Shown here piece by piece: positions 2,484-31,444 of a stretch of 32,072 bases of DNA. Origin of the DNA: a virus. Its lineage: Duplodnaviria > Caudoviricetes. A program made the position numbers and the translations under genes. Under the pieces are notes generated by a model. The model was given only the letters and a program-made list of their open reading frames with translations, was not told the origin of the DNA and did not search any database. Within the stretch, counting starts at the first letter, position 1. The number at the start of each line of letters is the position of its first letter. Location of the stretch: the IMG/VR virus record IMGVR_UViG_3300025528_000027, positions 1 through 32,072 of that record; one strand, given 5' to 3'.

Positions 2484-2668
2484 TCGCCCGCTGCCACCTT
2501 CGCGCACTGGAGCAGGCGGCGAGACTGCCCCGCGATGCGGAGAAATTCCGGGAGCTGCTGGAGTCGTTCCCGGCGGTGTGCCCGCACAACGATTGCAGCG
2601 CGCCGAGCTGCCGGGTTGCGGTTGCGGACCTTTTGCGGCAGGCTTGGATTCAGAAGGGGAGGAAGTAA
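2480..2668 (+). CDS. Hypothetical protein (62 aa, Cys-containing)
   Basis: ATGA overlap with the dnaB stop and TAATG overlap with the next gene. Confidence 0.6.
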   Translation: MIARCHLRALEQAARLPRDAEKFRELLESFPAVCPHNDCSAPSCRVAVADLLRQAWIQKGRK

Positions 2669-11426: not shown

Positions 11427-11972
11427 ATGCAATCCAATCGCGCCTATTCGGTGCTCGAAATCAAGTCTGTTGACGTGGAGGAGCGCTCCATCACGGGCAT
11501 TGCGACCACTCCCGAGACTGACCGTGTCGGCGACATCGTGGACCCGCTGGGGGCGAAGTTCGCGGAGGAGATCCCGCTGCTTTGGCAGCACCAGCACGAC
11601 AAGCCTGTGGGCGTTGCGCGATTTGGAAAGGCCACGAAGTCTGGCATCCCATTCACCGCCACGATTGCCAAGATCGCCGAGCCCGGGCCGCTGAAGGACC
11701 TGGTGGATATGGCTTGGCAAGCGGTGAAGGCCAAGCTGGTCCGGGGCGTGTCGATTGGCTTCCGCGCGCTTGGCTATGAGCCATTGGAGACTGGCGGCCT
11801 GAAGTTCACCGAGACCGAGATCTACGAGCTTTCGCTGGTGACGATCCCGGCGAATGCCTCGGCCACGATCCAGACGATCAAGAGCATGGACCGCAAACAT
11901 CTGGAAGGCGCGGTGAAGCTGATCCGCGCCCGCGATGTTGCGATCAAGAACGGAGCGGTTCCGCTCCGCTGA
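11427..11972 (+). CDS. HK97-family prohead protease
   Basis: DRVGDIV, LLWQHQHDKPVG, GVSIGF, ELSLVTIPAN. Confidence 0.93.
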   Translation: MQSNRAYSVLEIKSVDVEERSITGIATTPETDRVGDIVDPLGAKFAEEIPLLWQHQHDKPVGVARFGKATKSGIPFTATIAKIAEPGPLKDLVDMAWQAVKAKLVRGVSIGFRALGYEPLETGGLKFTETEIYELSLVTIPANASATIQTIKSMDRKHLEGAVKLIRARDVAIKNGAVPLR

Positions 11973-11974
11973 GC

Positions 11975-11990
11975 ACTGTCGTGAGACAGC
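11975..11990 (+). repeat. 16-bp direct repeat copy 1 (GUGA-tetraloop hairpin)
   Basis: ACTGTCGTGAGACAGC, identical to 12191-12206; folds as CTGTC-GTGA-GACAG. Confidence 0.85.
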
Positions 11991-12038
11991 GCATCCCCTA
12001 GAGGGAACCGAGCCGGGGCGCTGATCCCCGGCAACTAA

Positions 12039-12114
12039 GCCGGACTAGCTCAATTGGCAGAGCGGGGTCTTTGTAAGACTCGGGTTGGCGGTTCGATTCC
12101 GTCGTCCGGCTCCA
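12039..12114 (+). tRNA. trnT: tRNA-Thr (anticodon UGU)
   Basis: 76-nt cloverleaf: acceptor GCCGGAC/GTCCGGC, D arm GCTC/GAGC, anticodon stem GGGTC/GACTC with loop TT-TGT-AA (anticodon 12072-12074), T loop TTCGATT, encoded CCA. Confidence 0.93.
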
Positions 12115-12121
12115 AATTCAA

Positions 12122-12184
12122 GCGTCCATCCGCCCGTGGAACGGCGGTGCAGGGCTGCGCGTGGAACCGCAGCCGCATGGGCGC
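12122..12184 (+). ncRNA. Putative three-way-junction RNA element in the capsid leader
   Basis: GCGTCCAT/ATGGGCGC closes two hairpins (CCGCC/GGCGG and GGCTGCG/CGCAGCC) that both carry CGTGGAAC. Confidence 0.5.
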
Positions 12185-12190
12185 CAACCG

Positions 12191-12206
12191 ACTGTCGTGA
12201 GACAGC
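12191..12206 (+). repeat. 16-bp direct repeat copy 2 (GUGA-tetraloop hairpin)
   Basis: ACTGTCGTGAGACAGC, identical to 11975-11990. Confidence 0.85.
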
Positions 12207-12254
12207 CGATCGCATCGCCGCGAGGCGACGCATCCGAATACATGGAGCAAGAAA

Positions 12255-13679
12255 ATGAGCAATTACGCGAAGCAGATCGCCGATCTCCAGGCGACCCGCA
12301 AGGCCAAGGCCGAGGAGATGAAGGCCCTCGCCAAGACTGCGGAAGAGCAGGGCCGGACGTTCGATACCGGCGAGCAGGAGCAGTTTGACGAGCTGAAGGC
12401 GGCCATTGCGCAGATTGACAAGAGCATTGCCAACCTGCGCGAGCTGGAGGCCATCGAGAAGGCCGAGGCCGCCGATGCCGCGACCGCGAAGGCGGTTTCG
12501 GGCGACGAGCGCGCCAAGTCTGCGGTGTCCGTGGTCCGTGGCGGCGACGTGCAGGTCAAGGACACCACCAAGCTGGACAAGGGTATCAGCTTTGCCCGCA
12601 TGGCTCGCGTCAAGGCGCTGGCGTTCACTGGTCAGGCTGGCACCCGCAACGAGATCGAGATTGCCCAGAACCTGTATCCGGGCGACGAGTCGCTGGTGAA
12701 GTCGATCCAGAAGGCTGCGGTCCCGGCGGCGAATACCCTTACGGGCAGTGCCACCTGGGCGGGCAACCTGATCAACGAGGGTGGCGCTGCGTTCGCCGAC
12801 TTCGTGGAGTACCTGCGCGAGCGTTCGCTGTATGGTCAGATCAGCGACCGATTCCGCAGGCTGCCGTTCGACGCGCCGGTGCTGGTGCAGAGTTCTGGCG
12901 GCACTGCCCAGTGGGTCAAGGAGGGTGACGCGAAGCCGCTGACGCAGTGGACCTACACCCGCGCCAAGCTGACCCCGCTGAAGGTGGCCGCGATTGCCGC
13001 TGCGACCAAGGAGACGCTGATGCGCGCCTCGGTCAATGCTGATGCGTTCCTGCGTGACGAGCTGGCCCGTGCGGTCAATGCTCGCATCGACGGCACGCTG
13101 ATCAGCGCCGCCGCTGCCGTGACCGATGAGTCGCCGGCTGGCCTGCTGAACGGCACTGCGCCGCTGACCCTTTCGGGCGACGGTTCGGTGGCGGGCATCC
13201 GCTGCGACATCGCGCAGTTCCTGAAGGAGCTTGTCGGCGACAACCTGAGCGTGTCGGGCGCCTTCTGGGTCATGCCCGAGACGGTCGCGATTGACCTGTC
13301 GCTGGCGACCAACGAGGTCGGCGCTCCGGCGTTCCCGGGCATCACCCCGAACGGCGGCACGCTGGCGGGTCTGCCGGTGTTCACGTCGCAGTACGTGCCG
13401 ACCGACTCGGACGGCCCGGTTGTGGCGCTGATCAAGGGCGACGAGATCTTCCTCGGCGACGAGGGCGGCGTTCAGGTGTCTGTGTCGGATCAGGCGTCGC
13501 TGCTGATGGACAACGCGCCGACGATGGACAGCACCACGCCGACCGGCTCGAACTCGGTGGTCAGCATGTGGCAGACCAACAGCGTTGCGTTCCTGGTCGA
13601 GCGTTTCATCAACTGGCAGAAGCGTCGCGCTTCGGCGGTTGTGTGGGCGCACGTCAACTGGAATGCCTGCGCGTCCTAA
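12255..13679 (+). CDS. Major capsid protein, HK97 fold with N-terminal delta (scaffold) domain
   Basis: Coiled-coil N-terminus, WVKEG..KP, LTPLKVAAI, TLAGLPVFTSQYVP, SMWQTNSVAFLVER. Confidence 0.95.
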   Translation: MSNYAKQIADLQATRKAKAEEMKALAKTAEEQGRTFDTGEQEQFDELKAAIAQIDKSIANLRELEAIEKAEAADAATAKAVSGDERAKSAVSVVRGGDVQVKDTTKLDKGISFARMARVKALAFTGQAGTRNEIEIAQNLYPGDESLVKSIQKAAVPAANTLTGSATWAGNLINEGGAAFADFVEYLRERSLYGQISDRFRRLPFDAPVLVQSSGGTAQWVKEGDAKPLTQWTYTRAKLTPLKVAAIAAATKETLMRASVNADAFLRDELARAVNARIDGTLISAAAAVTDESPAGLLNGTAPLTLSGDGSVAGIRCDIAQFLKELVGDNLSVSGAFWVMPETVAIDLSLATNEVGAPAFPGITPNGGTLAGLPVFTSQYVPTDSDGPVVALIKGDEIFLGDEGGVQVSVSDQASLLMDNAPTMDSTTPTGSNSVVSMWQTNSVAFLVERFINWQKRRASAVVWAHVNWNACAS

Positions 13680-13689
13680 GCGGCACTTC

Positions 13690-13720
13690 GGAGGGGCTGG
13701 GAAACCGGCCCCTCCTTTTT
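13690..13720 (+). terminator. Intrinsic terminator after the capsid gene
   Basis: GGAGGGGCTGG-GAAA-CCGGCCCCTCC followed by TTTTT. Confidence 0.88.
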
Positions 13721-13734
13721 CGGCGAGGTGACAA

Positions 13735-13929
13735 GTGCGAATTCAATATCGAGCGAACGGTATGCAGCGCGAGGTGCGGGACAGCGTGGGCGAGGTTCTG
13801 ATTGCCCGCAATCTTGCGACCCGCGTTTACCGGACGCGTGAGCTTGTGGCCGATGAGCCGGAAGAGGCACCTCGCACGGGCAAGTCAAAGCGGAAATACA
13901 AGCGGCGCGATCTGGCTGCCGAGGACTGA
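13735..13929 (+). CDS. Hypothetical small basic protein (64 aa)
   Basis: GAGGTG RBS, GTG start, C-terminal KRKYKRRDL. Lies between capsid and portal. Confidence 0.7.
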   Translation: MRIQYRANGMQREVRDSVGEVLIARNLATRVYRTRELVADEPEEAPRTGKSKRKYKRRDLAAED

Positions 13930-13930
13930 G

Positions 13931-15316
13931 ATGCGAATTTTCGGGTTCAACATCACGCGCGAGAAGGCGGCGAAGCCCGTGACTGACTGGCGTCGTGGCT
14001 GGCGCGTCATCCATGAACCCTATACGGGCGCGTGGCAGAAGAACGACGAGCTGAAGCGCGGCGACCTGACCTGCTACCCGGCGCTGTATGCGTGCCTGAA
14101 TCGAATCACGCAGGACATTGGCAAGCTGCCGTTCCTGCTGAAGAGGAGGGGCGCGAACGGGATCTGGGAGGTTGCCGAGAACCCGGCATGGTCGCCCGTC
14201 CTGCGCAAGCCGAATGGCTACCAGACCGCGCAGCAGTTCCGCGAGGCGTGGATTCTGTCGAAGCTGCTGGACGGAAACACGTTTGTCCTGAAGCAGCGCG
14301 ACAATCGAGGCGTGGTCACGTCTCTGTACGTTCTGGACCCGAGCCGCGTTGAGCCGCTGGTGTCGGAAGCGGGCCGCGTGTTTTACCGGCTGAACTATGG
14401 CACGGCCAACAACCTGCTGCCCGATGCCTACGGCGGGGAGCAGATCACGGTTCCGGCGTCGGAGATCATCCACGACCGGATCAATCCGTTCCATCATCAG
14501 CTGCTCGGCGTGCCGCCTCTGTGCGCGGCTGCGCTGGCGGCAGGAAAGAATTTCAAGATCCTTCGCAACAGTTCGGCGTTCTTTGCCAACAACGCAAGTC
14601 CGGGCGGCCTGATTACCGCGCCCGCGGGCTTGACTGAGGAAGAGGCCGACGCAATCCAGGCCGCGTTCAATGAAAGGTACAGCGGCGAGAACAGCGGCAA
14701 GATCGCTGTGATCGGTGCCGACCTGAGGTTTACGCCGTTCTCCTTCAAGGCGGCGGATTCGCAGCTTGTCGAGCAGCTTCGCTACTCGGACGAACAAATC
14801 TGCCAGCCTTTCGGCATCCCGCCGTTCAAGATTGGCATCGGCTCGATCCCCGCAGGCATGACGGTTGACCAGATCAACCTGCTCTACCACGAGGACGCGC
14901 TGAGCGGCCATATCGAGGCGATGGAGAACCTGCTGGATGAGGCCCTGAACCTGCCACAGGACTGGGGGATCTGGCTGGATACGGAACCGCTGTTCCGCAT
15001 GGACGAGGGCAAGCGTGCGGAGATCGAGACGAAGCTGGTCGGCGGGATGATCAAGACGCCTGACGAGTCCCGCGCGAAGTTTGGCCTTGCCCCGACCGCT
15101 GGCGGCAATACGTTGTGGGGCCAGCATCAAGACTACCCGCTCGGGACGCTGGCCAATCGCCTGCCGCCTGACCAGAAGCCGCAGTCGCCTGAGCAGGCAG
15201 CCCCCACGGCGGATGAAGGCACGGCGAGAGAGGAAGAGCGGGCTATGGTGGCGGCTGCGATTGCGCAGCTCGCCCGTCAGTCGCTGAAGAAGAGGAAAGC
15301 GGCAAATGCAGCTTGA
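13931..15316 (+). CDS. Portal protein, HK97 family
   Basis: YAC..RI..DIGKLP, LRKPNGYQT, LLDGN, EIIHDR, FFANNASPGG, DSQLVEQ, PFGIPP, KTPDESR. Start at ATG 13931. Confidence 0.93.
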   Translation: MRIFGFNITREKAAKPVTDWRRGWRVIHEPYTGAWQKNDELKRGDLTCYPALYACLNRITQDIGKLPFLLKRRGANGIWEVAENPAWSPVLRKPNGYQTAQQFREAWILSKLLDGNTFVLKQRDNRGVVTSLYVLDPSRVEPLVSEAGRVFYRLNYGTANNLLPDAYGGEQITVPASEIIHDRINPFHHQLLGVPPLCAAALAAGKNFKILRNSSAFFANNASPGGLITAPAGLTEEEADAIQAAFNERYSGENSGKIAVIGADLRFTPFSFKAADSQLVEQLRYSDEQICQPFGIPPFKIGIGSIPAGMTVDQINLLYHEDALSGHIEAMENLLDEALNLPQDWGIWLDTEPLFRMDEGKRAEIETKLVGGMIKTPDESRAKFGLAPTAGGNTLWGQHQDYPLGTLANRLPPDQKPQSPEQAAPTADEGTAREEERAMVAAAIAQLARQSLKKRKAANAA

Positions 15317-16040
15317 CGTGAAGGCGCTTGGCGAAATGATCGCCGACCTGATTGCAGATGCGGTCGAGCCGTTGGAGAAGGCGAACGCCGAGCTGCGCAA
15401 GGAGATCGATGCCCTCAAGGCGCGCGAGCCTGACAGCATCGAAGCCCGGCCGGTCGAGATTGACGTGTCCGATGTGGTGAAGGAGCTGCTCGCAGCCGAC
15501 GAGATCAGGCAGTTGGTCGGGCTGGAGGTCGAGGCGTACCTGACGGAGAACCCGCCGCCCCCCGGCGAGCCGGGAAAGTCTGTGACGCTGGACGACGTGT
15601 CCGTGTTTCTGGAAGCCGCTGTCGCCAAGCACGTGCTGGACTTTGAGCGCCGCGCGAGCGAGAAACTGGACAGGGCCATTGAGCGCATCCCGGTGCCGAG
15701 GGATGGACGGGACGGCGTGGACCTGACCGAGCTTTCGCTGGACTACGACGGCGAGCGCACGGTGACGGTCAAGGGCCGTACGGGCACGGTGACCAAGCGC
15801 GTCCCAGTCCCGCTGTGGCGCGGCTACTGGTCGCCGGGTGTCGTTGCAGAGAAGGGCGACATCCTGACGCACAATGGCACGGCTTACATCGCAATCGTGG
15901 ACAACCCACGGTGTGAGCCGGGCGTTGGCAAGTACGACCACGAGTGGAAGGTGTTCGCGCGCAAGGGGCGCGACGGCAGGGATGGCCGAAACGGGATCGA
16001 CAAGACGGCTCCGGTCAAGGTGACGCGCGACGATGAGTGA
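15306..16040 (+). CDS. Head-associated protein with short Gly-X-Y tracts and a CBM5/12-like C-terminal motif
   Basis: Coiled-coil N-terminus, GEPGKS/GRDGVD/GRDGRDGRNG tracts, WRGYW....KGDILTHNGTAYIA. Confidence 0.6.
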   Translation: MQLDVKALGEMIADLIADAVEPLEKANAELRKEIDALKAREPDSIEARPVEIDVSDVVKELLAADEIRQLVGLEVEAYLTENPPPPGEPGKSVTLDDVSVFLEAAVAKHVLDFERRASEKLDRAIERIPVPRDGRDGVDLTELSLDYDGERTVTVKGRTGTVTKRVPVPLWRGYWSPGVVAEKGDILTHNGTAYIAIVDNPRCEPGVGKYDHEWKVFARKGRDGRDGRNGIDKTAPVKVTRDDE

Positions 16041-16446
16041 ATTGATCACCCGCGAGCAGGCATACGAGCACCTGCGGCTGGACTACGACAGCAGCGGCAG
16101 CGCCGATGACGGCTGGCTGGACGTGTTCATCCCGGCAGTCTCTGAGGCCGTGCGGCGGTGGCTGAAAGAGGACTGGCGTCTGTACGAATGGGAGACTGAC
16201 AGCGACGGCAACATCGTGCGAGACTCCGACGGCAACCCCGTCCCGCTTCTTGATAGCGACGGCGAGCCGGTGGTGAAGCCTGTGGTGCGCGCCGCCTGCC
16301 TGCTCGAACTGGCGTCGCAGTACCGATTCCGCGAGGGCGATGGCCGCGACAACGCCGTGCCGTCGCATGAAGGGTACGGCCACGGCCTGACCAGTAAGGC
16401 GGCTGTGGCGCTTCTGACGACGATTCGACGTCCGACGGTGGCATGA
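16033..16446 (+). CDS. Head-tail connector (HK97 gp6-like)
   Basis: LITREQAYEHLRLD, VRAACLLELASQYRFREG, LL..IRRPTVA. Contains three DSDG repeats. Confidence 0.85.
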   Translation: MSELITREQAYEHLRLDYDSSGSADDGWLDVFIPAVSEAVRRWLKEDWRLYEWETDSDGNIVRDSDGNPVPLLDSDGEPVVKPVVRAACLLELASQYRFREGDGRDNAVPSHEGYGHGLTSKAAVALLTTIRRPTVA

Positions 16447-17348
16447 ACTACGACCTTTACCACGGCGACTGCCTAGAGGTGATGGCGGGGCTGCCGGATG
16501 GGTCCGTTGATGCTGTGATCTGTGACCCGCCATATGGGACGATGCAAGGGTTCAACGGCATAGATTGGGACGTTGCGCTGGACCCCGCCGCCGTGTTCGA
16601 GCACTGCAACCGCGTGTTGCGGATGAACGGCGCGCTGGTGCTGTTCTCACAAGAGCCGTACACGTCCCGCCTCATTACCGAGGCGCACGGGAACCTGCCG
16701 TTTAGCTACCGCATGACGTGGCTCAAAGACAGTTTCGCCAATCATTTGATGTGCAAGAAGGCGCCGGTCTCCTACACCGAGGACGTGCTGGTTTTCTTCA
16801 AGAAGTACGACACGCTGGCGCAGCATCCACTACGGAAGTACGCCGCGCGGGTGCTGGCGGCATGCGGTGGTGATCTGAAGGCGATCAACGCGCGGCTGGG
16901 CCATCGTCGCGCGGAGCATTTCTTCTATGTGGAGTCCACGCAGTTTGGGCTTTGCACAGAACAAACCTACGCGCAGTTGTGCGAGGTGTACGGGCTGGAG
17001 GACTTTGAGTGGTTTAAGCCATACGCGGAGCTTGAGGAAATCAACCGCCGCTTCAAACGCCGCTTCAATCTGCCCGAAGGCCAGAAGTACAAGTCCAACG
17101 TCCTGCAATACCCGAAGGACTACACCGGCCACCATCCGACGCAGAAGCCGGTGGCGCTGATGGAGGACTTGGTAAAGACGTACACGGACCCCGGCGAAAC
17201 GGTGCTTGACTTCACGATGGGCAGCGGATCGACCGGCGTCGCCTGCGCGAACACGGGCCGGCGCTTCATTGGCATCGAGCGCGACGACAAATACTTCGCC
17301 ATCGCATCCGAGCGGATCGCGGAAGCGTATCGGAAAGAGGCCGCCTGA
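16443..17348 (+). CDS. DNA N6-adenine/N4-cytosine methyltransferase (beta class) with internal insertion
   Basis: LYHGDCLEVM, DAVICDPPYG, HPTQKPVALME, VLDFTMGSGSTG. Carries an extra segment of roughly 80 aa (HPLRKY...INRRF). Confidence 0.92.
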   Translation: MNYDLYHGDCLEVMAGLPDGSVDAVICDPPYGTMQGFNGIDWDVALDPAAVFEHCNRVLRMNGALVLFSQEPYTSRLITEAHGNLPFSYRMTWLKDSFANHLMCKKAPVSYTEDVLVFFKKYDTLAQHPLRKYAARVLAACGGDLKAINARLGHRRAEHFFYVESTQFGLCTEQTYAQLCEVYGLEDFEWFKPYAELEEINRRFKRRFNLPEGQKYKSNVLQYPKDYTGHHPTQKPVALMEDLVKTYTDPGETVLDFTMGSGSTGVACANTGRRFIGIERDDKYFAIASERIAEAYRKEAA

Positions 17349-17349
17349 C

Positions 17350-17694
17350 ATGCCCGCAGTAGCTTCCGGCAACCTGCGCCACAAGGTGTGGTTGCAAGCC
17401 AAGCAGATCACGCAAGACCCGGTGACGGGCGAAATGCTGACCACATGGGTCACCATCGCCCGCCCGTGGGCCGAGATCGTGCCCATGTCGGGGCGTGAGT
17501 TCATGGCCGCCGGTGCGGAGCAGTCCGAGGTGCGCGGGCGGATCGTGATCCGGTATCGCGATGACGTGGACGCCTCCATGCGCGTCGTCTATCGCGGGCG
17601 GTACTACAACATCTTGGCTGTGCTGCCGGATGCGGAATCCGGGCGCGAACACCTCACGCTGATGACTGGCGAAGGGGTCAGGCTTGACCAGTGA
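17350..17694 (+). CDS. Head closure/head-tail adaptor (SPP1 gp16-like)
   Basis: GNLRHKV.LQ..QDPVTGE...W.....WAEI.P.SGREF..IRYR....MRV..YNI.AVLPD. Confidence 0.88.
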   Translation: MPAVASGNLRHKVWLQAKQITQDPVTGEMLTTWVTIARPWAEIVPMSGREFMAAGAEQSEVRGRIVIRYRDDVDASMRVVYRGRYYNILAVLPDAESGREHLTLMTGEGVRLDQ

Positions 17695-18236
17695 CGACAT
17701 GGGCATTACTCGCGCCGGGTCCTTCCGCTTCGGCGGAGGATGCCGAGCGCGTCAGGGCGGCAGGAATTCCGCTGGGGGTCATCGGAAACGCCTTCCAGCT
17801 CGCGCCGTGGGCCGACTTTCTGGCCGCTACCGATGCGGCGTGGTGGCGGAAGTACCCTGAGGCGCTGACGCTGCCGGGCGCGAAGTACACGATGCACCAG
17901 GTCAAGGGCGTCGAGCGCGTCAAGGTGGCGGGCTACGTATCCGTCAACAGCGGCGTTCTGGGGCTGGAAGTGGCCCGGTCGAAAGGGGCCAGCCGGATCC
18001 TGCTGTTTGGGTTCGACATGCACGGCACGCATTTCTTCGGCCCGTACACCAACGGCCTGAGCAACACCAGCGAGGCCAAGCGCCGGATGCACTTGGCGCA
18101 GTACGCGCGATGGGCGAAGCGGAATCATGAGATACAGGTAATCAACTGCACGCCAGGTTCGGCGCTGCAATGTTTCCCAACGGCGAGGCTGGATGAATAT
18201 CTACGTACCGGACAGGTGCCTGCCGCTGCTTCGTGA
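17691..18236 (+). CDS. Putative Maf/GT29/GT42-like (DUF115-type) transferase
   Basis: APGPS, a downstream N, ADFLAATDAAWW, NSG..GLEVA...GASRILLFGFDM..HFFG, VINCTPGSAL. This motif order is seen in nucleotide-sugar-using Rossmann-like transferases. Confidence 0.55.
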   Translation: MTTWALLAPGPSASAEDAERVRAAGIPLGVIGNAFQLAPWADFLAATDAAWWRKYPEALTLPGAKYTMHQVKGVERVKVAGYVSVNSGVLGLEVARSKGASRILLFGFDMHGTHFFGPYTNGLSNTSEAKRRMHLAQYARWAKRNHEIQVINCTPGSALQCFPTARLDEYLRTGQVPAAAS

Positions 18237-18777
18237 GCAGAGGACGCACTACAGGGACATTCGGGCAGAGTACGGGCGGGAGATCGAGGCGACGTTTGCC
18301 ACGTTCCGAGACTACCTGCCGGAGACTGCCGACAACATTCTGGACATCGGTTCGGGCATGGCCGGTATCGATGTCCTGCTGGGTGGGCACTACCCGGGGG
18401 CTACGCTTCACCTGCTGGACAAGTCTGGCGTGTCGCCGAGGATCAACGCCGGATTCAACGAACGGGCTGAGGACTTCGCGCACTACAACGACTTCGACGC
18501 GGCGCGGGAATTGCTGGCGGCAAACGGAATTACGAATCCGGTTGTCTGCCATGACATGCACTGTGATCCATTCCCGGATCAGCTGTTCGATGTAGTGGTG
18601 AGCCTGCTGTCGTGGGGGTTCCACTATCCGATTTCGACCTATGCGCCGCGCTGCCGTGGAATCATGGTGGTAGACGTGAGGAAGGGAACAGGCGGTGAGG
18701 CAATGCTGGCCGAGTACGGAGACTTGAAAGTCGTCCACGAAGGCAGGAAATATCGGCGGGTCGTCGTCAAGTGCTGA
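18193..18777 (+). CDS. Class I SAM-dependent methyltransferase (non-DNA type)
   Basis: ILDIGSGMAG (motif I), LHLLD (motif II), FDVVVSLLSWGFHYP. No DPPY/NPPY or PC motif. Confidence 0.8.
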   Translation: MNIYVPDRCLPLLREQRTHYRDIRAEYGREIEATFATFRDYLPETADNILDIGSGMAGIDVLLGGHYPGATLHLLDKSGVSPRINAGFNERAEDFAHYNDFDAARELLAANGITNPVVCHDMHCDPFPDQLFDVVVSLLSWGFHYPISTYAPRCRGIMVVDVRKGTGGEAMLAEYGDLKVVHEGRKYRRVVVKC

Positions 18778-19466
18778 CTTTCGTCTGCTTCAAATGGCGT
18801 CCGGTGCGAACCGGCTTCCAGCTCCCGTCGGTGTGTCAGTACACAGCCAAGCACGTCAATGTGCTGCGTTCCATGTTGGAACGACATGTGCATATTCCGC
18901 ACAGACTGGTTTGTGTGACCGATGATCCAGCCGGGATAGATCCGCGTGTGGAGATCGTTCCGCTGTGGGACAAGTGCCGAGCGCTGGGCGGGTGCTACAA
19001 TCGGCTATGGGTGTTCAGCCACGAAGCGCGTGACCTGTTCGGCGACCGATTCGTGTGCATCGATCTGGACGTGGTGCTGGTGCGGGACTGCACGACGCTG
19101 TTCGCGAGGCCCGAGGACTTCGTGATCAACGCCTACAACCCAATCCGCGAAGGCGAAAACGATCAGCACTACAACGGCGGACTTTTCATGATGACCGCCG
19201 GAGCGCGGGCATCGGTCTGGGAGCAGTTCGATCCGCAGACAACGCCAGCCGTTGTGCAGGCGGACCCTCGTGTCATCGGCTCGGATCAGGCGTGGATCAG
19301 GCTTCACCTCGGGCGAGGCGAAGCGCGCTGGACGAATGCCGATGGCGTCTACGAGGCCCGGCAGGTCAGGCACGAGCTGCCGGAGAACGCGCGTCTTGTG
19401 CTGTTCTCCGGCAAGCGTGACCCATCGCGCTTTCCGTATCCGTGGATTCGGGAACACTGGCGATGA
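18771..19466 (+). CDS. GT-A fold glycosyltransferase (GT8-like)
   Basis: VCFKW, LVCVTDD, CIDLDVV (DxD), YNGGLFMM, SDQAWI, LVLFSGKRDP. Confidence 0.82.
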   Translation: MLTFVCFKWRPVRTGFQLPSVCQYTAKHVNVLRSMLERHVHIPHRLVCVTDDPAGIDPRVEIVPLWDKCRALGGCYNRLWVFSHEARDLFGDRFVCIDLDVVLVRDCTTLFARPEDFVINAYNPIREGENDQHYNGGLFMMTAGARASVWEQFDPQTTPAVVQADPRVIGSDQAWIRLHLGRGEARWTNADGVYEARQVRHELPENARLVLFSGKRDPSRFPYPWIREHWR

Positions 19467-20128
19467 GGACCATCGCTTGCGTGCTGAAAACCGGCGTGTG
19501 GCGCAACCGGCACATGCGGGTCGAGTACGGCCCGGATCATGTGCGGTGGCTGCGCGATCAGCTCCCGAGGTACGTGGGGACGGCGTATCGGTTCGTCTGC
19601 CTGAGCGACATTCCGATTGCCGGGGTGGACGTGATCCCGCTGAGGGATGACCTGCCGGGGTGGTGGTCGAAACTTGAGCTGTTCCGCGAGTTGGAGGATG
19701 CGTTCTACGTTGACCTCGATACGGTCATCGTCGGCGACATCACGCGGATGGTGAAGCACAAGCACAGGTTCACCGTGCTGCGGAACCTGTCGAGCAGGCA
19801 GAATGGTCGCATCGGTTCCGGCGTCATGGCGTGGCGGGGCGACTACTCGCACCTATACCGCACATTCATGGAGGACCCGCAGCGGCATATGGCCGAGTGC
19901 GTCACCCCGGCCAAGTGGGGCGATCAGGGGTTCATCCAGCACGTCCAGCGCGAGCATGGCGGCTGGGATTATTTCCAGGACCTGTGGCCGGGGCGCATCC
20001 AGTCGTTCAAGACGGACCTGCGCTACGGCGACCCGGGGAAGGATTGCCGGATCGTGTGTTTCCACGGCGAGCCTCGGCCATGGGCGTCGGGCAAGTCTTG
20101 GGTTCCGGAGTTGAAGCATGGACATTAG
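19463..20128 (+). CDS. GT-A fold glycosyltransferase (GT8-like), second paralogue
   Basis: FVCLSD, GWWSKLELF, YVDLDTVIVGDI (DxD), GSGVMAW, WGDQGFI, CFHGEPRPW. ATGA-coupled start at 19463. Confidence 0.85.
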   Translation: MRTIACVLKTGVWRNRHMRVEYGPDHVRWLRDQLPRYVGTAYRFVCLSDIPIAGVDVIPLRDDLPGWWSKLELFRELEDAFYVDLDTVIVGDITRMVKHKHRFTVLRNLSSRQNGRIGSGVMAWRGDYSHLYRTFMEDPQRHMAECVTPAKWGDQGFIQHVQREHGGWDYFQDLWPGRIQSFKTDLRYGDPGKDCRIVCFHGEPRPWASGKSWVPELKHGH

Positions 20129-20594
20129 CGTCAACGTGCAGGGCCTGGCAGAGATCGAGCGCAAGCTGAAGCTGCTGCCGGAGCGTATCGGCAACAACGC
20201 CATGCGTCGCGCGCTCCGAAAGGGCGCGAATGTCATCCGAGATGCAGCGCGTGCGAACGCAAAGCGGATCGACGACCCGGAAACCCGCGAGGCGATCTAC
20301 AAGAACATCGCCGTGGCCGGTGGTGGCCGGAGGCGCGAGCGGCAGGCCGGTGGCGTGATGATGCGAGTCGGCGTCCGTGGCGGCGCGAGGCCGCTGAGGA
20401 AGGGGACCGATACCGGTCTGCCGGGCGGCAACACGACCCACTGGCGATTCGTTGAGTTCGGGACCAGCCAGGCGCGAGCGCAGCCGTTCATGCGCCCAGC
20501 CGCTGCCAGCTCCGCCGGTGCGGCGTATCAGGCTGTGGCGGCGGCAGCGCCTGCCGAGATCGACAAAGAGCTGCGCAAGCTGGGGATCACCTGA
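20118..20594 (+). CDS. HK97 gp10-family tail completion protein
   Basis: V.GL.E..RKL, RRALRKGANVIRD.A, WRFVEFGTS..AQPFMRPA. Confidence 0.9.
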   Translation: MDISVNVQGLAEIERKLKLLPERIGNNAMRRALRKGANVIRDAARANAKRIDDPETREAIYKNIAVAGGGRRRERQAGGVMMRVGVRGGARPLRKGTDTGLPGGNTTHWRFVEFGTSQARAQPFMRPAAASSAGAAYQAVAAAAPAEIDKELRKLGIT

Positions 20595-21060: not shown

Positions 21061-21537
21061 ATGCGTACCGCAGGAACCGAGCTGTACTTCATTGACCCGA
21101 ACGATTGCAGTGTCGTGCAGGTTGGCTGCCCGACTTCGATCACCGGCCTTGATTCCACCATTGAGCAGCTGGAAACCACTTGTCTGGAATCCACCGCTCG
21201 CACCTACGAAGCGGGCCTTGCCACTCCCGGCACGGCTTCATTCACGCTGAACCTTGACCCGCAGGACCCGTCACACATTCGCCTGCTGGAACTCAAGACT
21301 GCGGGCACTTCGCTGAAGTGGGTCATCGGCTTCCCGGATGCCATCGGCACCGCCCCGACCGGAACGACCGACTCTGACGGCGAGTGCGCATTCGTCCTCC
21401 CGTCGAACCGGACGTGGCTGGAGTTCGAGGGCTTCGTGAACAGCTACGCCTTCGATTTCAGCCTGAATGCGCTGATCACTGCGACTGTCGGCATTCAGGT
21501 GTCCGGCGACCCGGTGCTGACCCCGGCGGGTAGCTAA
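21061..21537 (+). CDS. Major tail tube protein
   Basis: GTELYFID, LETTCLE..RTYEAGL.TPG.ASF.LN.DP, F.GFV....FDF, IQVSG.P. Confidence 0.9.
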   Translation: MRTAGTELYFIDPNDCSVVQVGCPTSITGLDSTIEQLETTCLESTARTYEAGLATPGTASFTLNLDPQDPSHIRLLELKTAGTSLKWVIGFPDAIGTAPTGTTDSDGECAFVLPSNRTWLEFEGFVNSYAFDFSLNALITATVGIQVSGDPVLTPAGS

Positions 21538-25306: not shown

Positions 25307-25896
25307 CCACGATCAACGCGGAGCTGGAACTGTGCCCGGGCTATGGCTGGCAGGTGCAGCCGGAGTTCAACACCCTGATCAAGCAGTTGCGCAGTGGTCG
25401 TGAGCGTCGGCGCTCGCTGTGGGAGTACGTCAAGCACCGATATGTGCTACCGTTTGCTAACATCACGGATGATGCCTACCTGACACACTTGAAGTCGGTT
25501 TTTCTGGCGTGCCGGGGCTCCGCAGAGTCGTTCCTGGTCAAGGACTACTCCGACTACCGCGCCAATAGGGCGGTGTTCGGCGTTGGCGATGGCACGGAAA
25601 CGGAGTTCGACCTATACATCATCTCCACGTTCGGCTCGGCTAGCTACGCGCGCCGGATTTTCTACCCGGTCGATCCGGTGTTCTACGTGGACGGCACGCC
25701 GGCATCGGCGACGGTGACGGATGGTGTTGTGACGTTCGATACCGCGCCCGGCAACGGTTCGGTGCTGTCGTGGTCCGGCGAATTCAGGGTGCCCGTGCGC
25801 TTCGCCACTGACACGTTCCCGATGAGTATAGACAACCGCTCTGGGGATCGCTATGTTATGAACGGCTCGGTGGAGCTGGTGGAGGTCTGGGAGTGA
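25303..25896 (+). CDS. Distal tail protein (DUF2460-like)
   Basis: PEFNT.I....SGRERR...W, FGVGDG....F.L, WSGEFRVPVRF..D, VELVEV. Confidence 0.85.
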   Translation: MTTINAELELCPGYGWQVQPEFNTLIKQLRSGRERRRSLWEYVKHRYVLPFANITDDAYLTHLKSVFLACRGSAESFLVKDYSDYRANRAVFGVGDGTETEFDLYIISTFGSASYARRIFYPVDPVFYVDGTPASATVTDGVVTFDTAPGNGSVLSWSGEFRVPVRFATDTFPMSIDNRSGDRYVMNGSVELVEVWE

Positions 25897-26834: not shown

Positions 26835-27265
26835 TGAGCGGGCCGGAACGTGTGGTCGCGCATGCCCGGTCCATGATCGGCGTGCCGTGGCGGCATCAGG
26901 GCCGCAAACCGTGGGCAGTGGATTGCATCGGGCTGGTGGTCGTGGCGATGCGGGCGGCCGGCTGGCCGGGACCGCTGGACGTGCCGCGAGGTTACGGCCG
27001 CGAGCCGTGGGACGACCAGTTGCGGGCGGGTCTACGCCGTCACTTCGGCGAGCCCGTCTCCGGCGATTGGCAGCCGGGCGACATCGCGCTGTTCCGTTGG
27101 GGCAAGGGTGAGCCGTCTCACGTCGGTATCATTGCTGATCACCCGCATGGCGGTCTATCGATCATCCATGCTAGCAACCTGCGAAACGTAGTGGAGACGT
27201 CGCTGTCCGGCCGGCTGTTGTCGTGCGTCGAGGAAGTCTATCGGCCGAAGTGGGGTGAAGCGTGA
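26831..27265 (+). CDS. NlpC/P60 (C40) tail-associated peptidase
   Basis: ARSMIGVPWRHQGR...VDCIGLV, PGDIALF, HVGI, IIHA. Start is ATG 26831 or 26834. Confidence 0.9.
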   Translation: MMSGPERVVAHARSMIGVPWRHQGRKPWAVDCIGLVVVAMRAAGWPGPLDVPRGYGREPWDDQLRAGLRRHFGEPVSGDWQPGDIALFRWGKGEPSHVGIIADHPHGGLSIIHASNLRNVVETSLSGRLLSCVEEVYRPKWGEA

Positions 27266-28263
27266 GCGATTACGCAGGTCCCGTTCTCGGCGTCGTTGGC
27301 GCCGTTGTAGGCTTTGCGGTTGGTGGCCCTTCCGGCGCCATGTGGGGCTGGACCATCGGCGCGACGCTCGGCGGCATGTATTCTGCGTCGCAGCAGGTCA
27401 TCCCGGGCCCGAAAATCGGTGATGTACAGAGGCAGACGCAGCAGGAGGGCGGATTCCGCCCCATTGTCTATGGCAGGTCGCATCCGATTGCGGGAAACGT
27501 CATCGCCGATGGCGGGCCGGTCATCGTCAAAAAGCGGCAGCGCCAGGGAAAGGGCGGCCCGAAGGTCGAGACGGAATCTGTCTATCGCACGTATGCGGTG
27601 GGGTTCTGTGAGGGCGAGGCGATACTGCTGCAAGCGTGGCGGAACGGCATTCTCGTCTACGACGCCGAAGACCCGTCGATGGCGGCGGAGAACGCGAAGT
27701 TCCTTGAGTACGCCACTTGGTACACAGGCAGCTTCAATCAGGGGCCGTCTCCTGCGCTGGAGGAGATTTTCGGGGTGGGGCAAGCGCCCTACTTCCGGGG
27801 AACGGCCTATCTCGCACTTCACAACGAGGACGTGACCGACCTGCGAGGCGCTTGGTCGCAATGGCAGGTCCGCGTGTTCCGTGGTGCTGCGCGATCCTAT
27901 ACCACGCCGCCGTATCCGGTGGTCTTCACGGATTCTCTTGGCATCACCTCGCTCGCCCGCAAAGGCGGCCACTATACATTCCCGGTCGAGGGAATGTCGG
28001 TAGAGTCGCTGGCCTTGGGCGGAACGCTCAAAGACACATTTCTCAGCTACGCAAGTCCACCAGAGGAGATGGATATCTCCAGCATTGCGCTCGGTGGAAC
28101 GCTTGGCACGCCACTACAGCACTACGACTACGAACCAGAACCCCTGGATATTTCCAGTGTCGCGCTAGGGGGCGACTTGGAAGTCGTTCTGTTGCGGTAT
28201 CAAAACTACGAACCAGAGGCCATGGACATTTCCAGTGTCGCACTAGGAGGAACCCTGACGTGA
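27262..28263 (+). CDS. Central tail/tip protein, N-terminal part, fused to a repeat domain
   Basis: Gly-rich N-terminus, RPIVYG..IAGNVI, TYAVGFCEG, YTG...Q.P.P.LE...G...PYFRGTAY, then C-terminal DISS.ALGG.L repeats. Confidence 0.8.
   Translation: MSDYAGPVLGVVGAVVGFAVGGPSGAMWGWTIGATLGGMYSASQQVIPGPKIGDVQRQTQQEGGFRPIVYGRSHPIAGNVIADGGPVIVKKRQRQGKGGPKVETESVYRTYAVGFCEGEAILLQAWRNGILVYDAEDPSMAAENAKFLEYATWYTGSFNQGPSPALEEIFGVGQAPYFRGTAYLALHNEDVTDLRGAWSQWQVRVFRGAARSYTTPPYPVVFTDSLGITSLARKGGHYTFPVEGMSVESLALGGTLKDTFLSYASPPEEMDISSIALGGTLGTPLQHYDYEPEPLDISSVALGGDLEVVLLRYQNYEPEAMDISSVALGGTLT
27988..28260 (+). repeat. Four ~25-aa coding repeats E.(M/L)(D/S)(I/V).S.ALGG.L
   Basis: MSVESLALGGTL, MDISSIALGGTL, LDISSVALGGDL, MDISSVALGGTL. 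Confidence 0.8.
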
Positions 28264-29252
28264 TCGATATTTACATCCCAAGCGGGCGGTTCTTAGAAGG
28301 CGAAATTTCCGAAGCGAAAGTTGGTCTTGAGGGCTGGTATACGTTGCGCGCCAGACGCCGCAGCGGGCGCGTGACCCGTGAGCGTACGTTCAAGGTGGAA
28401 GCGTGCCGAGAGCTTCCTCCATTCCATAATCTGATCACCAATCTGGGGCTTGATCGCTTCGGCTCGGCGCCTGCAAATTCACTCTACATCAGGTGCCATG
28501 TTGGCACTGGAACGGCCACCCCTTCGGTAACCGACACGCAGTTGCAGACCTTCTTGGCTGCCGTGAGTACGTCGAACCCGACGACTGCAATCGCCAACTC
28601 TGGCCCCCCCGATTACTACTCGTATCGCACTTTCACTTGGACAAGTTCCATTGGCGCGCTCGGCAACAACAATCTGACCGAGATCGGGATCAGCGGCCAG
28701 AGCACAAACGGCCTGTTGTTCTCGCGCGAACTGATACGCGACTCTGGCGGAAACCCGACAGCTTTCCCGATTTCAGCCGATGAGCAGCTTGAGGTCACGT
28801 ATGAGTTGCGCATCTATCCTAACTTGACTGATGTTCCGGCTACGGTGATGGTCGGGTCGAATAGCCACGATACGATCACGCGCCCAATGTTGGTGAACAA
28901 CACAGGATTCTGGGGCCCGCTCCAAGTAGCGTCCGGTGTTGCGAATGCGGCGCGGGGCGGCGCCGCTGGAACAAATAGGGCGCATTCTGGCGACCTGGTT
29001 CCGTATACAGATTCTCTCCCGTCAGGCAGTCTTGGTGACGCCTCTTCTGGCGCAACCGCCCCGTACACGAATGGCAGTTTTTATCGAGATGTGTCAAACA
29101 CGTGGAACATCTCTACTGGCAACGGGAATATCCGGGTTGTGACGGTTGGATTTGGTTGCGCCGCTTTTCAGGTTCGCTATGACCCGGTTATCACGAAAAC
29201 CAACACGCAAGTCCTCACCCTCCATCAGCGCATTTCGTGGGCGCGGCGATGA
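28260..29252 (+). CDS. Virion structural protein (330 aa, Ser/Thr/Gly/Asn-rich, beta-rich)
   Basis: GTGA-coupled start at 28260. FHNLITNLGLD, VGTGTATP..TDTQL, NLTEIG, LFSRELIRD..GNP, L.VTYELRIY. Confidence 0.75.
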   Translation: MIDIYIPSGRFLEGEISEAKVGLEGWYTLRARRRSGRVTRERTFKVEACRELPPFHNLITNLGLDRFGSAPANSLYIRCHVGTGTATPSVTDTQLQTFLAAVSTSNPTTAIANSGPPDYYSYRTFTWTSSIGALGNNNLTEIGISGQSTNGLLFSRELIRDSGGNPTAFPISADEQLEVTYELRIYPNLTDVPATVMVGSNSHDTITRPMLVNNTGFWGPLQVASGVANAARGGAAGTNRAHSGDLVPYTDSLPSGSLGDASSGATAPYTNGSFYRDVSNTWNISTGNGNIRVVTVGFGCAAFQVRYDPVITKTNTQVLTLHQRISWARR

Positions 29253-31444
29253 TCCCAGAAGACAGGTTTTCGTCCACCACGCTTCAAGGGCAGTTGCATA
29301 ACCCTTGGAGCCGACGGGCCGATATCAGCCTCCATTGGGGGCCGATTGCAATACAGGACCCGTCACAAGGCCTTCGGGCGCGACTGTGGAAAGCGCGTTC
29401 CGTAGGGAATGCGATTCTACTGTCGGCCCCCGGCGTGGCAGAGGAGAATTGGTACACGCACACGGAAGACCTGGAGCAGGTTTCACTTTCCTTCGACCAG
29501 AACGGCCGGCCGGCGGTCGCCTTCGTTGATAGCGCGGGCGGAACCTACCTCAGATGGTTCGATCCAGTACCCAACGCCGTGGTGAACATGCCGCTGGTCG
29601 GGATCACCCCGCGCGTCACCCTCGACGATAGTCGGCCGCAGAACCTGAGCAACTCCGACATCATCCTCGGCTATGTGCGCGGTGGGGTCGTGCGCTATCG
29701 GATACAGCGCGAGAGATTCCAAGATGAGCACACGCCGCCCCTCGGGGTAGGTGGCGCACCAGCACAAGCCAGCCGCCTGCACCATATCAGCATGAACTCC
29801 AACCTGCGCCTGCAGTTCGTGGTAGACGATGGAGGCGGCGATGAGGATTGGACGCTGGCGATGATCATCGAGGACATATGTGAGCGCGCGAACCTTCCGC
29901 CAGAGCGGCTGGGCCTATCTCTCATGGACTGGCAGCGCATCGTGCGCGGCTTCACAATCGGCAACGCCTACACGGCTTCTGGCAGCCTACAGTCGCTGTC
30001 ATCGATCTTTTTCTTCGATCCGCAATCCGCGAACGGCCGCGTCCACTTCGTTCCGCGCGGTGCGGATGCTAAGGCAACGATCTACGAAGATGACATGATC
30101 GACAACGGGGAGCCGATTGAAGAAGGCAGCACCCGGCGTGGAGATCCCATCGGTGTTCCGCGCGTCCTGCACCTGAACTACTACGATGTTGCGGGCGGGC
30201 TGAATACCGATAAACAGCGCAGCGAACGACCCGAGGGTACGCGCTCGGAGGGTGAGCAGTCATTGCAGACCCCGGTTGTGCTGTCGGCCGACGAGGCTGC
30301 AACTGTCGTTGCTCGCACGCACGGGCTGATGGTCGAACAGCAGAAGGGCGAGCTGAATTTCTCGCTGCCCGACAACTGGCTGCGACTCACAGAGTCCGAC
30401 CCGGTGTTCGTGCAGACCGGCACGAAGATGGTCAGGGCGATCATCACAAAGGTGGAGACGGACGAAGGCGAACAGAGATACAAGGCCATACGTGATCGGC
30501 AGAGCCTCTACACGATGCAGGTGCAGGGCATCCCTGCCGCGCCGGTCACCCGGCCTCCGTCGAGCGTTGCCGGTCCGACCATCATCGAGTTCCTCGACAT
30601 CCCGATCCTGCGCGACACGCACGATCAGCTCGGGTTCTACCTCGCCGTGTCCGGCGTCATGCCAGCGTGGCCCGGCGCTTACGTCGAGCTGTCACTTGAT
30701 GGCGGACAGAACTACATCGACGGGCAAACAACTCAAACCGGCAGCGTCATCGGCGAACTTGTGACACCGCTGGGCGATCATCCGCACGAGTTCCCGGACA
30801 CGGTGAACCGGTGCGAAATCCTGATCAAAACACCCAACGAGCCACTGACCGGCACGAACCTGCCCGGAATGCTCAACCGGCGCAACCGAGCGATCATCGG
30901 CAACGAGATCGTCAATTTCGCGGACGTGGACGAAGTGACGCCTGGCATCTGGGATGTGGGGCACTGGCTGCGCGGCCGGCTGGGCACTGATGCGGTGGCG
31001 CACAGCATCGGCGAGCGATTCGTGCTTCTGGACACCGCCATGTTCATCCCGGCTGAATTGGCGTGGCTGGGCCGAGACCTGACGTTCCGCGCGGCAACGC
31101 TTGGGCGCCCGATTGACGAGGCCACGATCACGACGGTCACATTCACCGGGGCATCGCAGACCGAGCGCAAACCTGCCTACCTGTCCGCACGCCGCGACGG
31201 AACGGATGCCGTCATTTCGTGGCAGGGCGTCGGCAGGCTTGGCGCAGGCGCGAACGTCGCAATGGGCGCGTACTTCCAGGGCTACCGCGTCACGCTAACG
31301 GACGGCAGCACCACGCAGACACACGACACCACGGCAAACGCGCTCACTACGTCACTATCCGCGTTTGTTGGGCCGGTCACAGTCCGCGTCCAGCAGCGCA
31401 ACCAAATCACCGGGCTTGGCCCGTACATTGAGGTCACTATCTGA
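29249..31444 (+). CDS. Central tail/tip protein, C-terminal part (Phage-tail_3/GTA megatron-like) with a foreign N-terminal domain
   Basis: N-terminal ~200 aa with DPSQGL and FDQNGRP, then LAMIIEDICERA, FFFD...G.VHFVPRG, LDIPIL, NRAIIGNEIVNF, LRGRLGT, GERFVLL. Confidence 0.82.
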   Translation: MIPEDRFSSTTLQGQLHNPWSRRADISLHWGPIAIQDPSQGLRARLWKARSVGNAILLSAPGVAEENWYTHTEDLEQVSLSFDQNGRPAVAFVDSAGGTYLRWFDPVPNAVVNMPLVGITPRVTLDDSRPQNLSNSDIILGYVRGGVVRYRIQRERFQDEHTPPLGVGGAPAQASRLHHISMNSNLRLQFVVDDGGGDEDWTLAMIIEDICERANLPPERLGLSLMDWQRIVRGFTIGNAYTASGSLQSLSSIFFFDPQSANGRVHFVPRGADAKATIYEDDMIDNGEPIEEGSTRRGDPIGVPRVLHLNYYDVAGGLNTDKQRSERPEGTRSEGEQSLQTPVVLSADEAATVVARTHGLMVEQQKGELNFSLPDNWLRLTESDPVFVQTGTKMVRAIITKVETDEGEQRYKAIRDRQSLYTMQVQGIPAAPVTRPPSSVAGPTIIEFLDIPILRDTHDQLGFYLAVSGVMPAWPGAYVELSLDGGQNYIDGQTTQTGSVIGELVTPLGDHPHEFPDTVNRCEILIKTPNEPLTGTNLPGMLNRRNRAIIGNEIVNFADVDEVTPGIWDVGHWLRGRLGTDAVAHSIGERFVLLDTAMFIPAELAWLGRDLTFRAATLGRPIDEATITTVTFTGASQTERKPAYLSARRDGTDAVISWQGVGRLGAGANVAMGAYFQGYRVTLTDGSTTQTHDTTANALTTSLSAFVGPVTVRVQQRNQITGLGPYIEVTI

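Follow-up and report, generated by a model that had tools for sequence, protein, structure and literature searches.

A glycosylation-type cassette in the head-tail operon of an HK97-type siphophage: a fixed Maf/GT42-like gene with exchangeable partners

The 32,072-nt contig IMGVR_UViG_3300025528_000027 (the whole stretch analyzed here, referred to as the window) is a partial genome of an HK97-type siphophage, with all its genes on the + strand. Between the genes for the head closure protein Hc1 and the HK97 gp10-like neck protein it carries four overlapping genes, g1 to g4, which form a real, translationally coupled cassette of the glycosylation type. The cassette consists of two units, a lineage-fixed g1, encoding a protein with a predicted Maf/glycosyltransferase family 42 (GT42)-like fold, and a swappable block formed by g2 (methyltransferase), g3, and g4 (glycosyltransferase family 8 [GT8]-like). 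We propose, with moderate confidence, a late cytoplasmic pathway that would decorate virion proteins with an O-glycan that is short and variable, in which g1 would prime, probably with 3-deoxy-D-manno-octulosonate (Kdo), g3 and g4 would extend, and g2 would optionally cap. The glycan would probably serve to vary or mask the virion surface, perhaps in answer to pressures on adsorption or from proteases, capsid-sensing defenses, or grazers. The analysis establishes the integrity of the genes, the predicted folds of g1 and g3, the fixed position of g1, the exchange of its partners, and the fusion of g1 to fiber proteins. The proposal further assumes co-transcription with the late genes, catalytic activity, a protein acceptor, Kdo as the donor, and the order of steps just given.

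Integrity and layout of the cassette

Four intact + strand open reading frames (ORFs) occupy the interval between Hc1 and gp10 (Table 1), at the coordinates proposed earlier by an annotation made without database searches (the sequence-only reading). The five overlaps were also exactly as that reading had given them: 4 nt (GTGA) between Hc1 and g1, followed by 44, 7, 4 (ATGA), and 11 nt up to gp10. The start of Hc1 is likely the ATG at 17350, judging from the start of its homologue in locus L013. An origin of the cassette genes as shadow ORFs was ruled out by their hundreds of homologues (414 for g1, 194 for g2, and 556 for g3) and by ratios of nonsynonymous to synonymous substitution of 0.09 to 0.22 (g1, 0.22; g3, 0.09; and g4, 0.17, against the relative L008; g2, 0.16, against L088).

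Head closure and gp10 genes had been taken to be normally adjacent. In agreement with this, a single gp10-sized gene lay between the head closure and tail terminator genes in eight of nine cassette-free cultured phages, picked as controls for their related tube or capsid genes and their lack of g1. Profiles of g1 to g3 found nothing in the head-tail regions of these nine. Two phages, SOVA965 and FSL SP-016, retain the capsid-portal-neck order of the window phage without the cassette, which is thus dispensable for building such virions.

No + strand promoter- or terminator-like site was detected within the cassette, as the sequence-only reading had claimed, in a scan of low power (1 promoter hit in 12 kb, versus 1.8 expected). 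Its claim that there is no obvious transmembrane segment or signal peptide was borne out by peak 19-residue hydropathy values of 1.06 to 1.51, compared with 1.90 for the holin, no dedicated signal-peptide predictor having been run. The traits of serotype-converting morons (their own promoter and terminator, and membrane enzymes) were therefore not seen in these weak scans, and coupled overlaps join the cassette to its neighbors at both ends.

Predicted folds and motifs

The enzyme types originally assigned (a Maf/GT42-like fold, a class I methyltransferase, and GT-A enzymes with a DxD motif) were all upheld, and structure searches returned glycosyltransferase-type folds for the two predicted models, those of g1 and g3. 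The g1 model (predicted local distance difference test score [pLDDT], 93) matched best the Maf flagellin glycosyltransferase 5mu5 (Z score, 13.9; root mean square deviation, 2.9 over 160 aligned residues; Foldseek E value, 8.9e-4). Weaker matches were obtained with SteA (Z, 11.3), CstI (10.4), MptE/HPPK (9.9), and thiamine pyrophosphokinases (TPK). As modeled, g1 has a GT-A-variant fold of the Maf/GT42 type. Three of its residues, D48, S87, and D109, are invariant across 99 sequences of the family. According to excerpts from a preprint, Maf requires an acidic residue, a serine, and then an acidic residue or asparagine 23 positions on, and transfers Kdo onto Ser/Thr in Escherichia coli (bioRxiv 2020.06.03.131540). 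The g1 residues parallel this triad by order and spacing alone, with 22 positions from Ser to Asp instead of 23. Full multidomain Maf membership was not found: g1 has 181 residues compared with 632, it scores below the PF01973 cutoff (5 of the 99 family members match weakly), and there is no flagellin locus. The protein is Maf-like in action at most, and stands outside the Maf family proper. A pyrophosphokinase (MptE/TPK) role, whose fold is shared at lower Z scores, is disfavored by the fusions of g1 to glycosyltransferases and methyltransferases and by its neighbors.

For its part, the g3 model (pLDDT, 94) shows a GT-A fold, matching LgtC (Z, 17.2), the Skp1 galactosyltransferase (16.1), glycogenin (15.9), and the PBCV-1 capsid glycosyltransferase 2p6w (12.0). 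Both g3 and g4, which are 28% identical, carry a DLD motif, so that the GT-A fold with DxD is assigned to g3 from its predicted model and to g4 by homology. The nearest named Atlas cluster of g4 is GT8. Neither protein matched PF01501 (GT8) at an E value of 0.1, hence the designation GT8-like only. Sequence-profile searches of solved structures with g1 and g3 gave no significant match.

The g2 protein has the Motif I D-x-G-x-G and the acidic residue after strand 2 of class I S-adenosylmethionine (SAM)-dependent methyltransferases, in agreement with its Atlas neighbors, and G53, G55, and D76 are invariant across 117 family members. Its profile matches comprise small-molecule, RNA, and protein methyltransferases (best E value, 2.6e-4); the motifs suggest its class, not the class of its substrate. 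A tblastn search with g2 against cultured phages gave no matches.

A fixed g1 with exchangeable partners

Partners were tallied in the 55 g1 loci that include both flanks. The commonest sets were a GT2-like gene with a methyltransferase (18 loci) and the families of D3 orf12 and orf13 (16 loci), followed by a PF05159-like gene with a methyltransferase, with or without extra genes (11 loci), and a GT2-like gene with no detected methyltransferase (4 loci). In two loci g1 stood alone, and four sets were singletons, including g2-g3-g4 and g3-g4. A methyltransferase, from one of several families, accompanied g1 in 48 of the 55 slots.

Genes 92 to 96% identical to the g1 of the window occur with five sets, represented by the window, L008, L009, L010, and L013 (where g1 is split over two frames). 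In L088, g2 to g4 are 72 to 81% identical to those of the window, while g1 (43%), Hc1, and the capsid protein reach only 43 to 50%. Since the partner sets differ beside nearly identical g1 genes and L088 shows this contrast, g1 is the fixed element and g2-g4 a mobile block. The single four-gene unit of the sequence-only reading must be revised accordingly, the more so as g2 is deleted in close relatives: the first seven g2 codons are joined in frame to g3 in L008, and metagenome run X23 contains the identical deletion. A constant first enzyme able to stand alone, followed by variable later enzymes, would fit priming and then extension and capping.

Some slots hold extra genes, for a 2-oxoglutarate-Fe(II) oxygenase, a glycerophosphodiesterase, or a hexapeptide acyltransferase (L085:6123-6851, L129:2691-3377, and L146:2832-3533).

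Genomic context of the homologues

Synteny of g1 was followed in the best 80 of 98 IMG/VR relatives, one of which is the window's twin and many of which are close kin. In all 80 loci g1 lay within 4 kb of a head or tail gene, directly after Hc1 in 66, after Ad1 in 4, further down in 8, and in loci lacking those anchors in 2; in none was it in a replication context. An unbiased check, anchored on the capsid and tube genes, gave 49 loci, of which 26 spanned the slot (23 contigs, one of them the twin), all 26 with g1; 9 more had g1 but were cut, and 14 were uninformative.

The context loci of g2 and g3 were annotated through 143 proteins, under half of their 362 clusters. For g2 (59 loci, 56 counted), 18 showed structural genes at once and 30 more were annotated, 23 of them structural, 1 both structural and replicative, and 6 unknown; 8 were left out of the annotation. 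Among the best 80 of 230 g3 loci, 42 had a recognized structural gene within 4 kb. Annotation of 36 of the other 38 revealed structural genes in 22, replication or recombination genes only in 12, and both in 2; in L148 a capsid gene lies at a greater distance, and L105 was outside the annotation. Thus, the expectation that homologues stay in head-tail operons held for g1 throughout and for g2 and g3 mostly, failing in 14 of the 80 g3 loci, which have a replication or recombination context. Most of these last belong to large T4-like phages that carry islands of sugar enzymes, and in five distant loci g3 comes after DnaB and a thymidylate synthase whose motif looks ThyX-like. The T4-like loci with g3 or g4 homologues near DnaB, thymidylate synthase, or UvsX/Y/W are L098-L107, L109, L112, L113, and L115, and some of their islands include UDP-glucose dehydrogenase, epimerases, a heptose kinase, or a sulfotransferase.

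The isolation that the sequence-only reading implied for the cassette was not sustained, given the homologues in P1 and D3 and a layout of methyltransferase plus three glycosyltransferases already known in cluster O mycobacteriophages. The g1 protein is 35% identical to D3 orf7 and 26% identical to P1 PmgO and P7 HdmB, and is also homologous to PAJU2 ORF10, whereas g4 is 38% identical to P1 PmgQ and P7 HdmD. The P7 homologues are annotated as "head morphogenesis." In P1 the pmgN-Q block is preceded by a C1 operator, with a late promoter further upstream, and pmgO, pmgP, and pmgQ are given as nonessential in the laboratory in excerpts of PMC10695390. The PAJU2 slot reads Hc1-g1-orf11-methyltransferase-gp10, and its ORF10 was deposited as a "structural protein"; within the first 13 kb of PAJU2 only the capsid and tube proteins share that label, which the Eowyn g1 homologue bears as well. 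PmgO-, PmgP-, and PmgQ-like genes also occur in tandem in Citrobacter phage phiNP (L004:5885-7651), between the lysis genes and terminase, the first of the three being unannotated.

Fusions of g1 to fiber proteins

Searched with a g1 profile, 1.8 billion representatives yielded 1,610 matches at an E value of 1e-10, and 16 long proteins from the best 150 were scanned. Five of them carry the g1 domain at the N terminus of a collagen-repeat protein (PKD domains are present in three and LamG domains in one), and all five match tail-fiber PHROGs. D48 and S87 are kept in 5/5 and D109 in 4/5. In other fusions the partner of g1 is the D3 orf12 family, a methyltransferase, or GT2. One locus (L282:3058-4854) places a g1-fiber fusion after portal-Ad1-Hc1, followed by a full partner set of PF05159-like and methyltransferase-like genes. 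Of the evidence gathered, the g1-fiber fusion points most directly to the virion, though a structural role for g1 would be compatible with it as well. A metagenome scan with the fusion protein P0391 retrieved 24 loci, all by the collagen part and none with the g1 domain.

Proposed pathway and alternative explanations

In the proposed pathway g1 would start the glycan by linking a sugar, Kdo being the likeliest, to Ser/Thr of virion proteins, g3 and g4 would add hexoses to the g1-primed glycan, and g2 would optionally methylate its end. The choice of Kdo follows from the partner families. One of them matches PF05159 (6 of 16 members; best E value, 1.8e-6) and, among solved structures, 5fa0 (E value, 0.005) and KpsC (0.1 to 0.9), both of which we take to be beta-Kdo transferases. 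The D3 orf12 family weakly matches the heptosyltransferases WaaF (E value, 6e-4) and TibC (about 1), with no glycosyltransferase match in Pfam and no similarity to WaaC. Kdo-transferase- and heptosyltransferase-type enzymes act on or with Kdo, and among CMP-sugars CMP-Kdo is the one that Gram-negative hosts have in common. Because the partner families point to Kdo in this way and no sugar-nucleotide synthesis gene was identified in the g1 slots, Kdo is our best guess for the donor of g1, and the donors would be host housekeeping pools (CMP-Kdo, UDP-hexose, and SAM).

A virion glycan is the best reading because the homologues lie mostly in virion operons and g1 is fused to fiber proteins. The best structural match of g1, ahead of the next (Z, 13.9 versus 11.3), is a protein O-glycosyltransferase, and the "structural protein" and "head morphogenesis" labels of the PAJU2 and P7 homologues, together with the cluster O precedent, lend further support. 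The possibly methyl-capped virion glycan first suggested is therefore partly supported, and the deletion of g2 in relatives would make any cap optional. A broader version, which we put forward tentatively and consider doubtful, is that a minimal Maf-type enzyme present in a large share of Gram-negative phages (including P1 and D3) binds the virion and attaches Kdo to its proteins, that exchangeable partners then build a lipopolysaccharide (LPS)-core-like, strain-specific "virion serotype" coat, and that the same domain has been co-opted as an anchor for collagen fibers.

Mycobacteriophage glycans are reportedly attached at the C terminus of capsid and tube subunits. Several observations weigh against virion glycosylation, among them that a C-terminal Ser/Thr, tried as an acceptor marker, did not separate cassette-bearing from cassette-free phages: it was found in 34 of 66 unique capsid tails versus 3/9 and in 21 of 53 tube tails versus 4/9, and Ser/Thr in the last three residues in 51/66 versus 8/9 and 36/53 versus 7/9, respectively. 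The fold of g1 is common to SteA, MptE/HPPK, and thiamine pyrophosphokinases (Z, 9 to 11), and g1 lacks the rest of Maf, of which 160 of 632 residues were aligned. The main counterevidence is genomic: the 14 discordant g3 loci adjoin DnaB, thymidylate synthase, UvsX/Y/W, or DNA polymerase, and L122:7372-9428 carries g2-g3-g4 in the order of the window (42 to 61% identity) downstream of DNA polymerase and clamp genes, with no g1. The locus counts are not independent, many loci being close kin. A cryo-electron microscopy paper on the D3 capsid, a study not described as glycan seeking, contains no word beginning with "glyc" and reports that the capsid protein alone assembles shells (PMC12749128). 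Similarly, in a word search the P1 virion proteome paper, again not described as glycan seeking, does not mention PmgO, PmgP, or PmgQ (PMC9024508).

Action on the host envelope is, in our judgment, unlikely. During the lytic phase the enzymes would then act on LPS core or O-antigen still being made at the cytoplasmic face, or else on a receptor of the pilus or flagellum, altering or capping it so that progeny or rivals adsorb less. Their types are indeed typical of LPS and capsule synthesis: g1 resembles CstI/II and, weakly, WaaZ (E value, 0.01; probability, 4%), the top fold match of g3 is LgtC, and the partners resemble KpsC/5fa0 and WaaF. Nor, to correct the sequence-only reading, does the lack of a transmembrane segment exclude an LPS substrate, since LPS-core transferases are soluble or peripheral enzymes and the enzyme types just listed need no such segment. 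However, no promoter-like site was seen inside the cassette in the weak scan, and P1 pmgN-Q should be silent in the lysogen because the block follows the C1 operator. The O-antigen acetylase of PAJU2 is a separate gene on the opposite strand, g3 has no sequence similarity to WaaO, and late enzymes could presumably reach only newly made LPS. The g1-fiber fusion would also be left unexplained.

Hypermodification of phage DNA by the glycosyltransferases before or during packaging, as a protection from restriction or CRISPR nucleases, appears less probable still. It gains from the 14 g3 loci near replication or recombination genes, from the DNA methyltransferase gene immediately upstream of Hc1, and from phage DNA glycosyltransferases that, according to excerpts of bioRxiv 2023.12.21.572611, can put Kdo, heptose, and short chains on 5-hydroxymethylcytosine. 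The same excerpts state that such hypermodification requires a C5-methyltransferase with a dioxygenase, or a thymidylate-synthase-type enzyme. The 46 ORFs scanned in the window, itself only part of a genome, yielded neither a C5-methyltransferase/5mYOX pair nor a thymidylate-synthase-type gene, and the 79 annotated genes of PAJU2, many of them hypothetical, include none under such a name. In addition, the upstream methyltransferase is of the N6/N4 type and optional, and g1 never occurred in a replication context. We regard as similarly improbable that g1 acts chiefly as a structural or sugar-binding component attached to the virion (a fiber anchor or neck accessory), with g2-g4 acquired separately for the same or another target. 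Virion anchors are usually at the N terminus of fiber proteins, which is where g1 stands on the collagen proteins; the "structural protein" labels of PAJU2 ORF10 and the Eowyn homologue, as well as the different histories of g1 and g2-g4 in L088, point the same way. Against it, the fusions retain the putative catalytic residues, the D3 orf12 family, methyltransferases, and GT2 are further fusion partners of g1, and PmgO goes unmentioned in the P1 proteome text. A g1 that bound the particle and modified it too would reconcile this reading with virion glycosylation.

The window phage and its host

The window encodes DnaB, NinB, holin, lysozyme, HNH, terminase, protease, capsid, portal, neck, tail tube, tape measure, and a gene transfer agent (GTA)-like tail tip. 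Bioreactor metagenomes, which may be its source, contain the stretch in full, and variants occur in two compost runs; the four metagenome runs compared with the window consist of contigs. The nearest cultured head-tail module is that of Pseudomonas phage PAJU2 (capsid, 44%; tube, 57%). A scan of GTDB for g1 gave 2 loci only, both phage head-tail regions in metagenome-assembled genomes, and no reliable host. Matches to the window of about 30 nt in contigs of runs X6 and X7 continue into two kinds of repeat-like sequence, presumably of types I-E and I-F, and are probably CRISPR spacers against the window phage. From its cultured relatives and the CRISPR-like repeats in these two runs, the host is likely a proteobacterium.

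Table 1. Features of the window and g1-fiber fusion proteins
Feature	Position or identifier	Strand	Remarks
g1, Maf/GT42-fold enzyme, 181 aa, predicted priming transferase	17691..18236	+	phrog_4603, E 5.5e-33
g2, class I SAM-dependent methyltransferase, 194 aa; optional gene, predicted to cap the glycan by O-methylation	18193..18777	+	Methyltransf_25, E 0.0027
g3, GT-A, GT8-like glycosyltransferase, 231 aa	18771..19466	+	DLD 98-100; phrog_1962, E 2.5e-12
g4, g3 paralogue, 221 aa	19463..20128	+	DLD 84-86; phrog_1962, E 1.7e-55
Head closure protein Hc1, upstream flank	17350..17694	+	PF05521, E 5.7e-28; phrog_25
HK97 gp10-like neck protein, downstream flank	20118..20594	+	PF04883; phrog_5
N6/N4 DNA methyltransferase, optional insert between Ad1 and Hc1, outside the cassette	16443..17348	+	PF01555, E 9e-29
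Major capsid protein	12255..13679	+	PF05065; ends in Ser; candidate acceptor
Tail tube protein	21061..21537	+	PF16460; ends in Ser; candidate acceptor
Short matches in X6/X7 contigs (window positions)	13037-13069, 14024-14053, 15546, 24394, 25863-25895
g1-fiber fusions	P0376, P0391, P0393, P0399, P0409		g1 + collagen/PKD/LamG

The DNA methyltransferase insert between Ad1 and Hc1, overlooked in the sequence-only reading, is absent from the 95% relative L008/L226; a second N6/N4 DNA methyltransferase, at 2401-3279, is 56% identical to it. The order protease-capsid-portal (11427-16040) is unusual, and a tRNA-Thr(TGT) gene lies between the prohead protease and capsid genes (12039-12114). The portal gene is followed by one for a conserved 244-aa protein that has short Gly-X-X repeats; it occurs whether or not the cassette is there and is a possible acceptor. 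The GTA-like tail-tip protein (phrog_4271) appears as two separate genes, one N-terminal and one C-terminal, that flank a phrog_4176 gene (27262-31444).

Significance and comparison with known systems

In the open-access full-text literature no demonstration of virion glycosylation in a Gram-negative phage was found, the demonstrated cases cited being mycobacteriophages. If the proposal is correct, virion glycosylation would be widespread, with a different priming chemistry (Ser/Thr-O-Kdo), and virion glycans would diversify like bacterial surface-glycan loci. It would also give a function to the long-orphaned P1 pmgO-Q and D3 orf7, orf12, and orf13, and would bear on adsorption, on recognition of the particle, and on the reading of phage proteomics. 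The homologue-bearing phages P1, D3, and PAJU2 are cultured, and pmgO-Q are dispensable in P1.

Each part of the cassette has counterparts. With Maf (PF01973, 5mu5) and the GT42 enzymes CstI/CstII, g1 shares its fold (Z, 13.9 and 10.4) and a matching Asp/Ser/Asp pattern; it differs from Maf as a bare 181-aa catalytic domain with no flagellin or nonulosonate pathway nearby. With the GT8 family and the PBCV-1 capsid glycosyltransferase, g3 shares a GT-A fold with DxD, but identity is 12 to 19% and there is no PF01501 match. P1 differs from the window in its second Maf-like gene and a phosphatase (pmgO-pmgP-(ppp)-pmgQ; hdmB-hdmC-hdmD in P7). In D3, orf12-orf13 lie just before gp10, in a position comparable to the window slot; where the window has two GT8-like partners, D3 and PAJU2 have one that is GT9/TibC-like.

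The closest known parallel is in cluster O mycobacteriophages (Corndog), where excerpts of PMC11600133 and PMC12363180, which cite Freeman et al. (2023), describe an O-methyltransferase with three glycosyltransferases, as well as virion glycosylation in Che8 and Myrna. Like that type, the window has a methyltransferase in tandem with three predicted phage-encoded, cytoplasmic glycosyltransferases, with capsid and tail tube as proposed targets. At the sequence level, tblastn with g1, g3, and g4 at an E value of 1e-5 gave no mycobacteriophage among its matches. The window differs in its probably Gram-negative host, its predicted Maf/GT42-fold primer, and the swapping of partners among close relatives. 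Thus, the concept and gene layout are already known from the cluster O phages, and the cassette genes are homologous to known orphan genes; to these the locus adds the anatomy of a fixed initiator with swappable partners, partner families pointing to Kdo, and the g1-fiber fusion.

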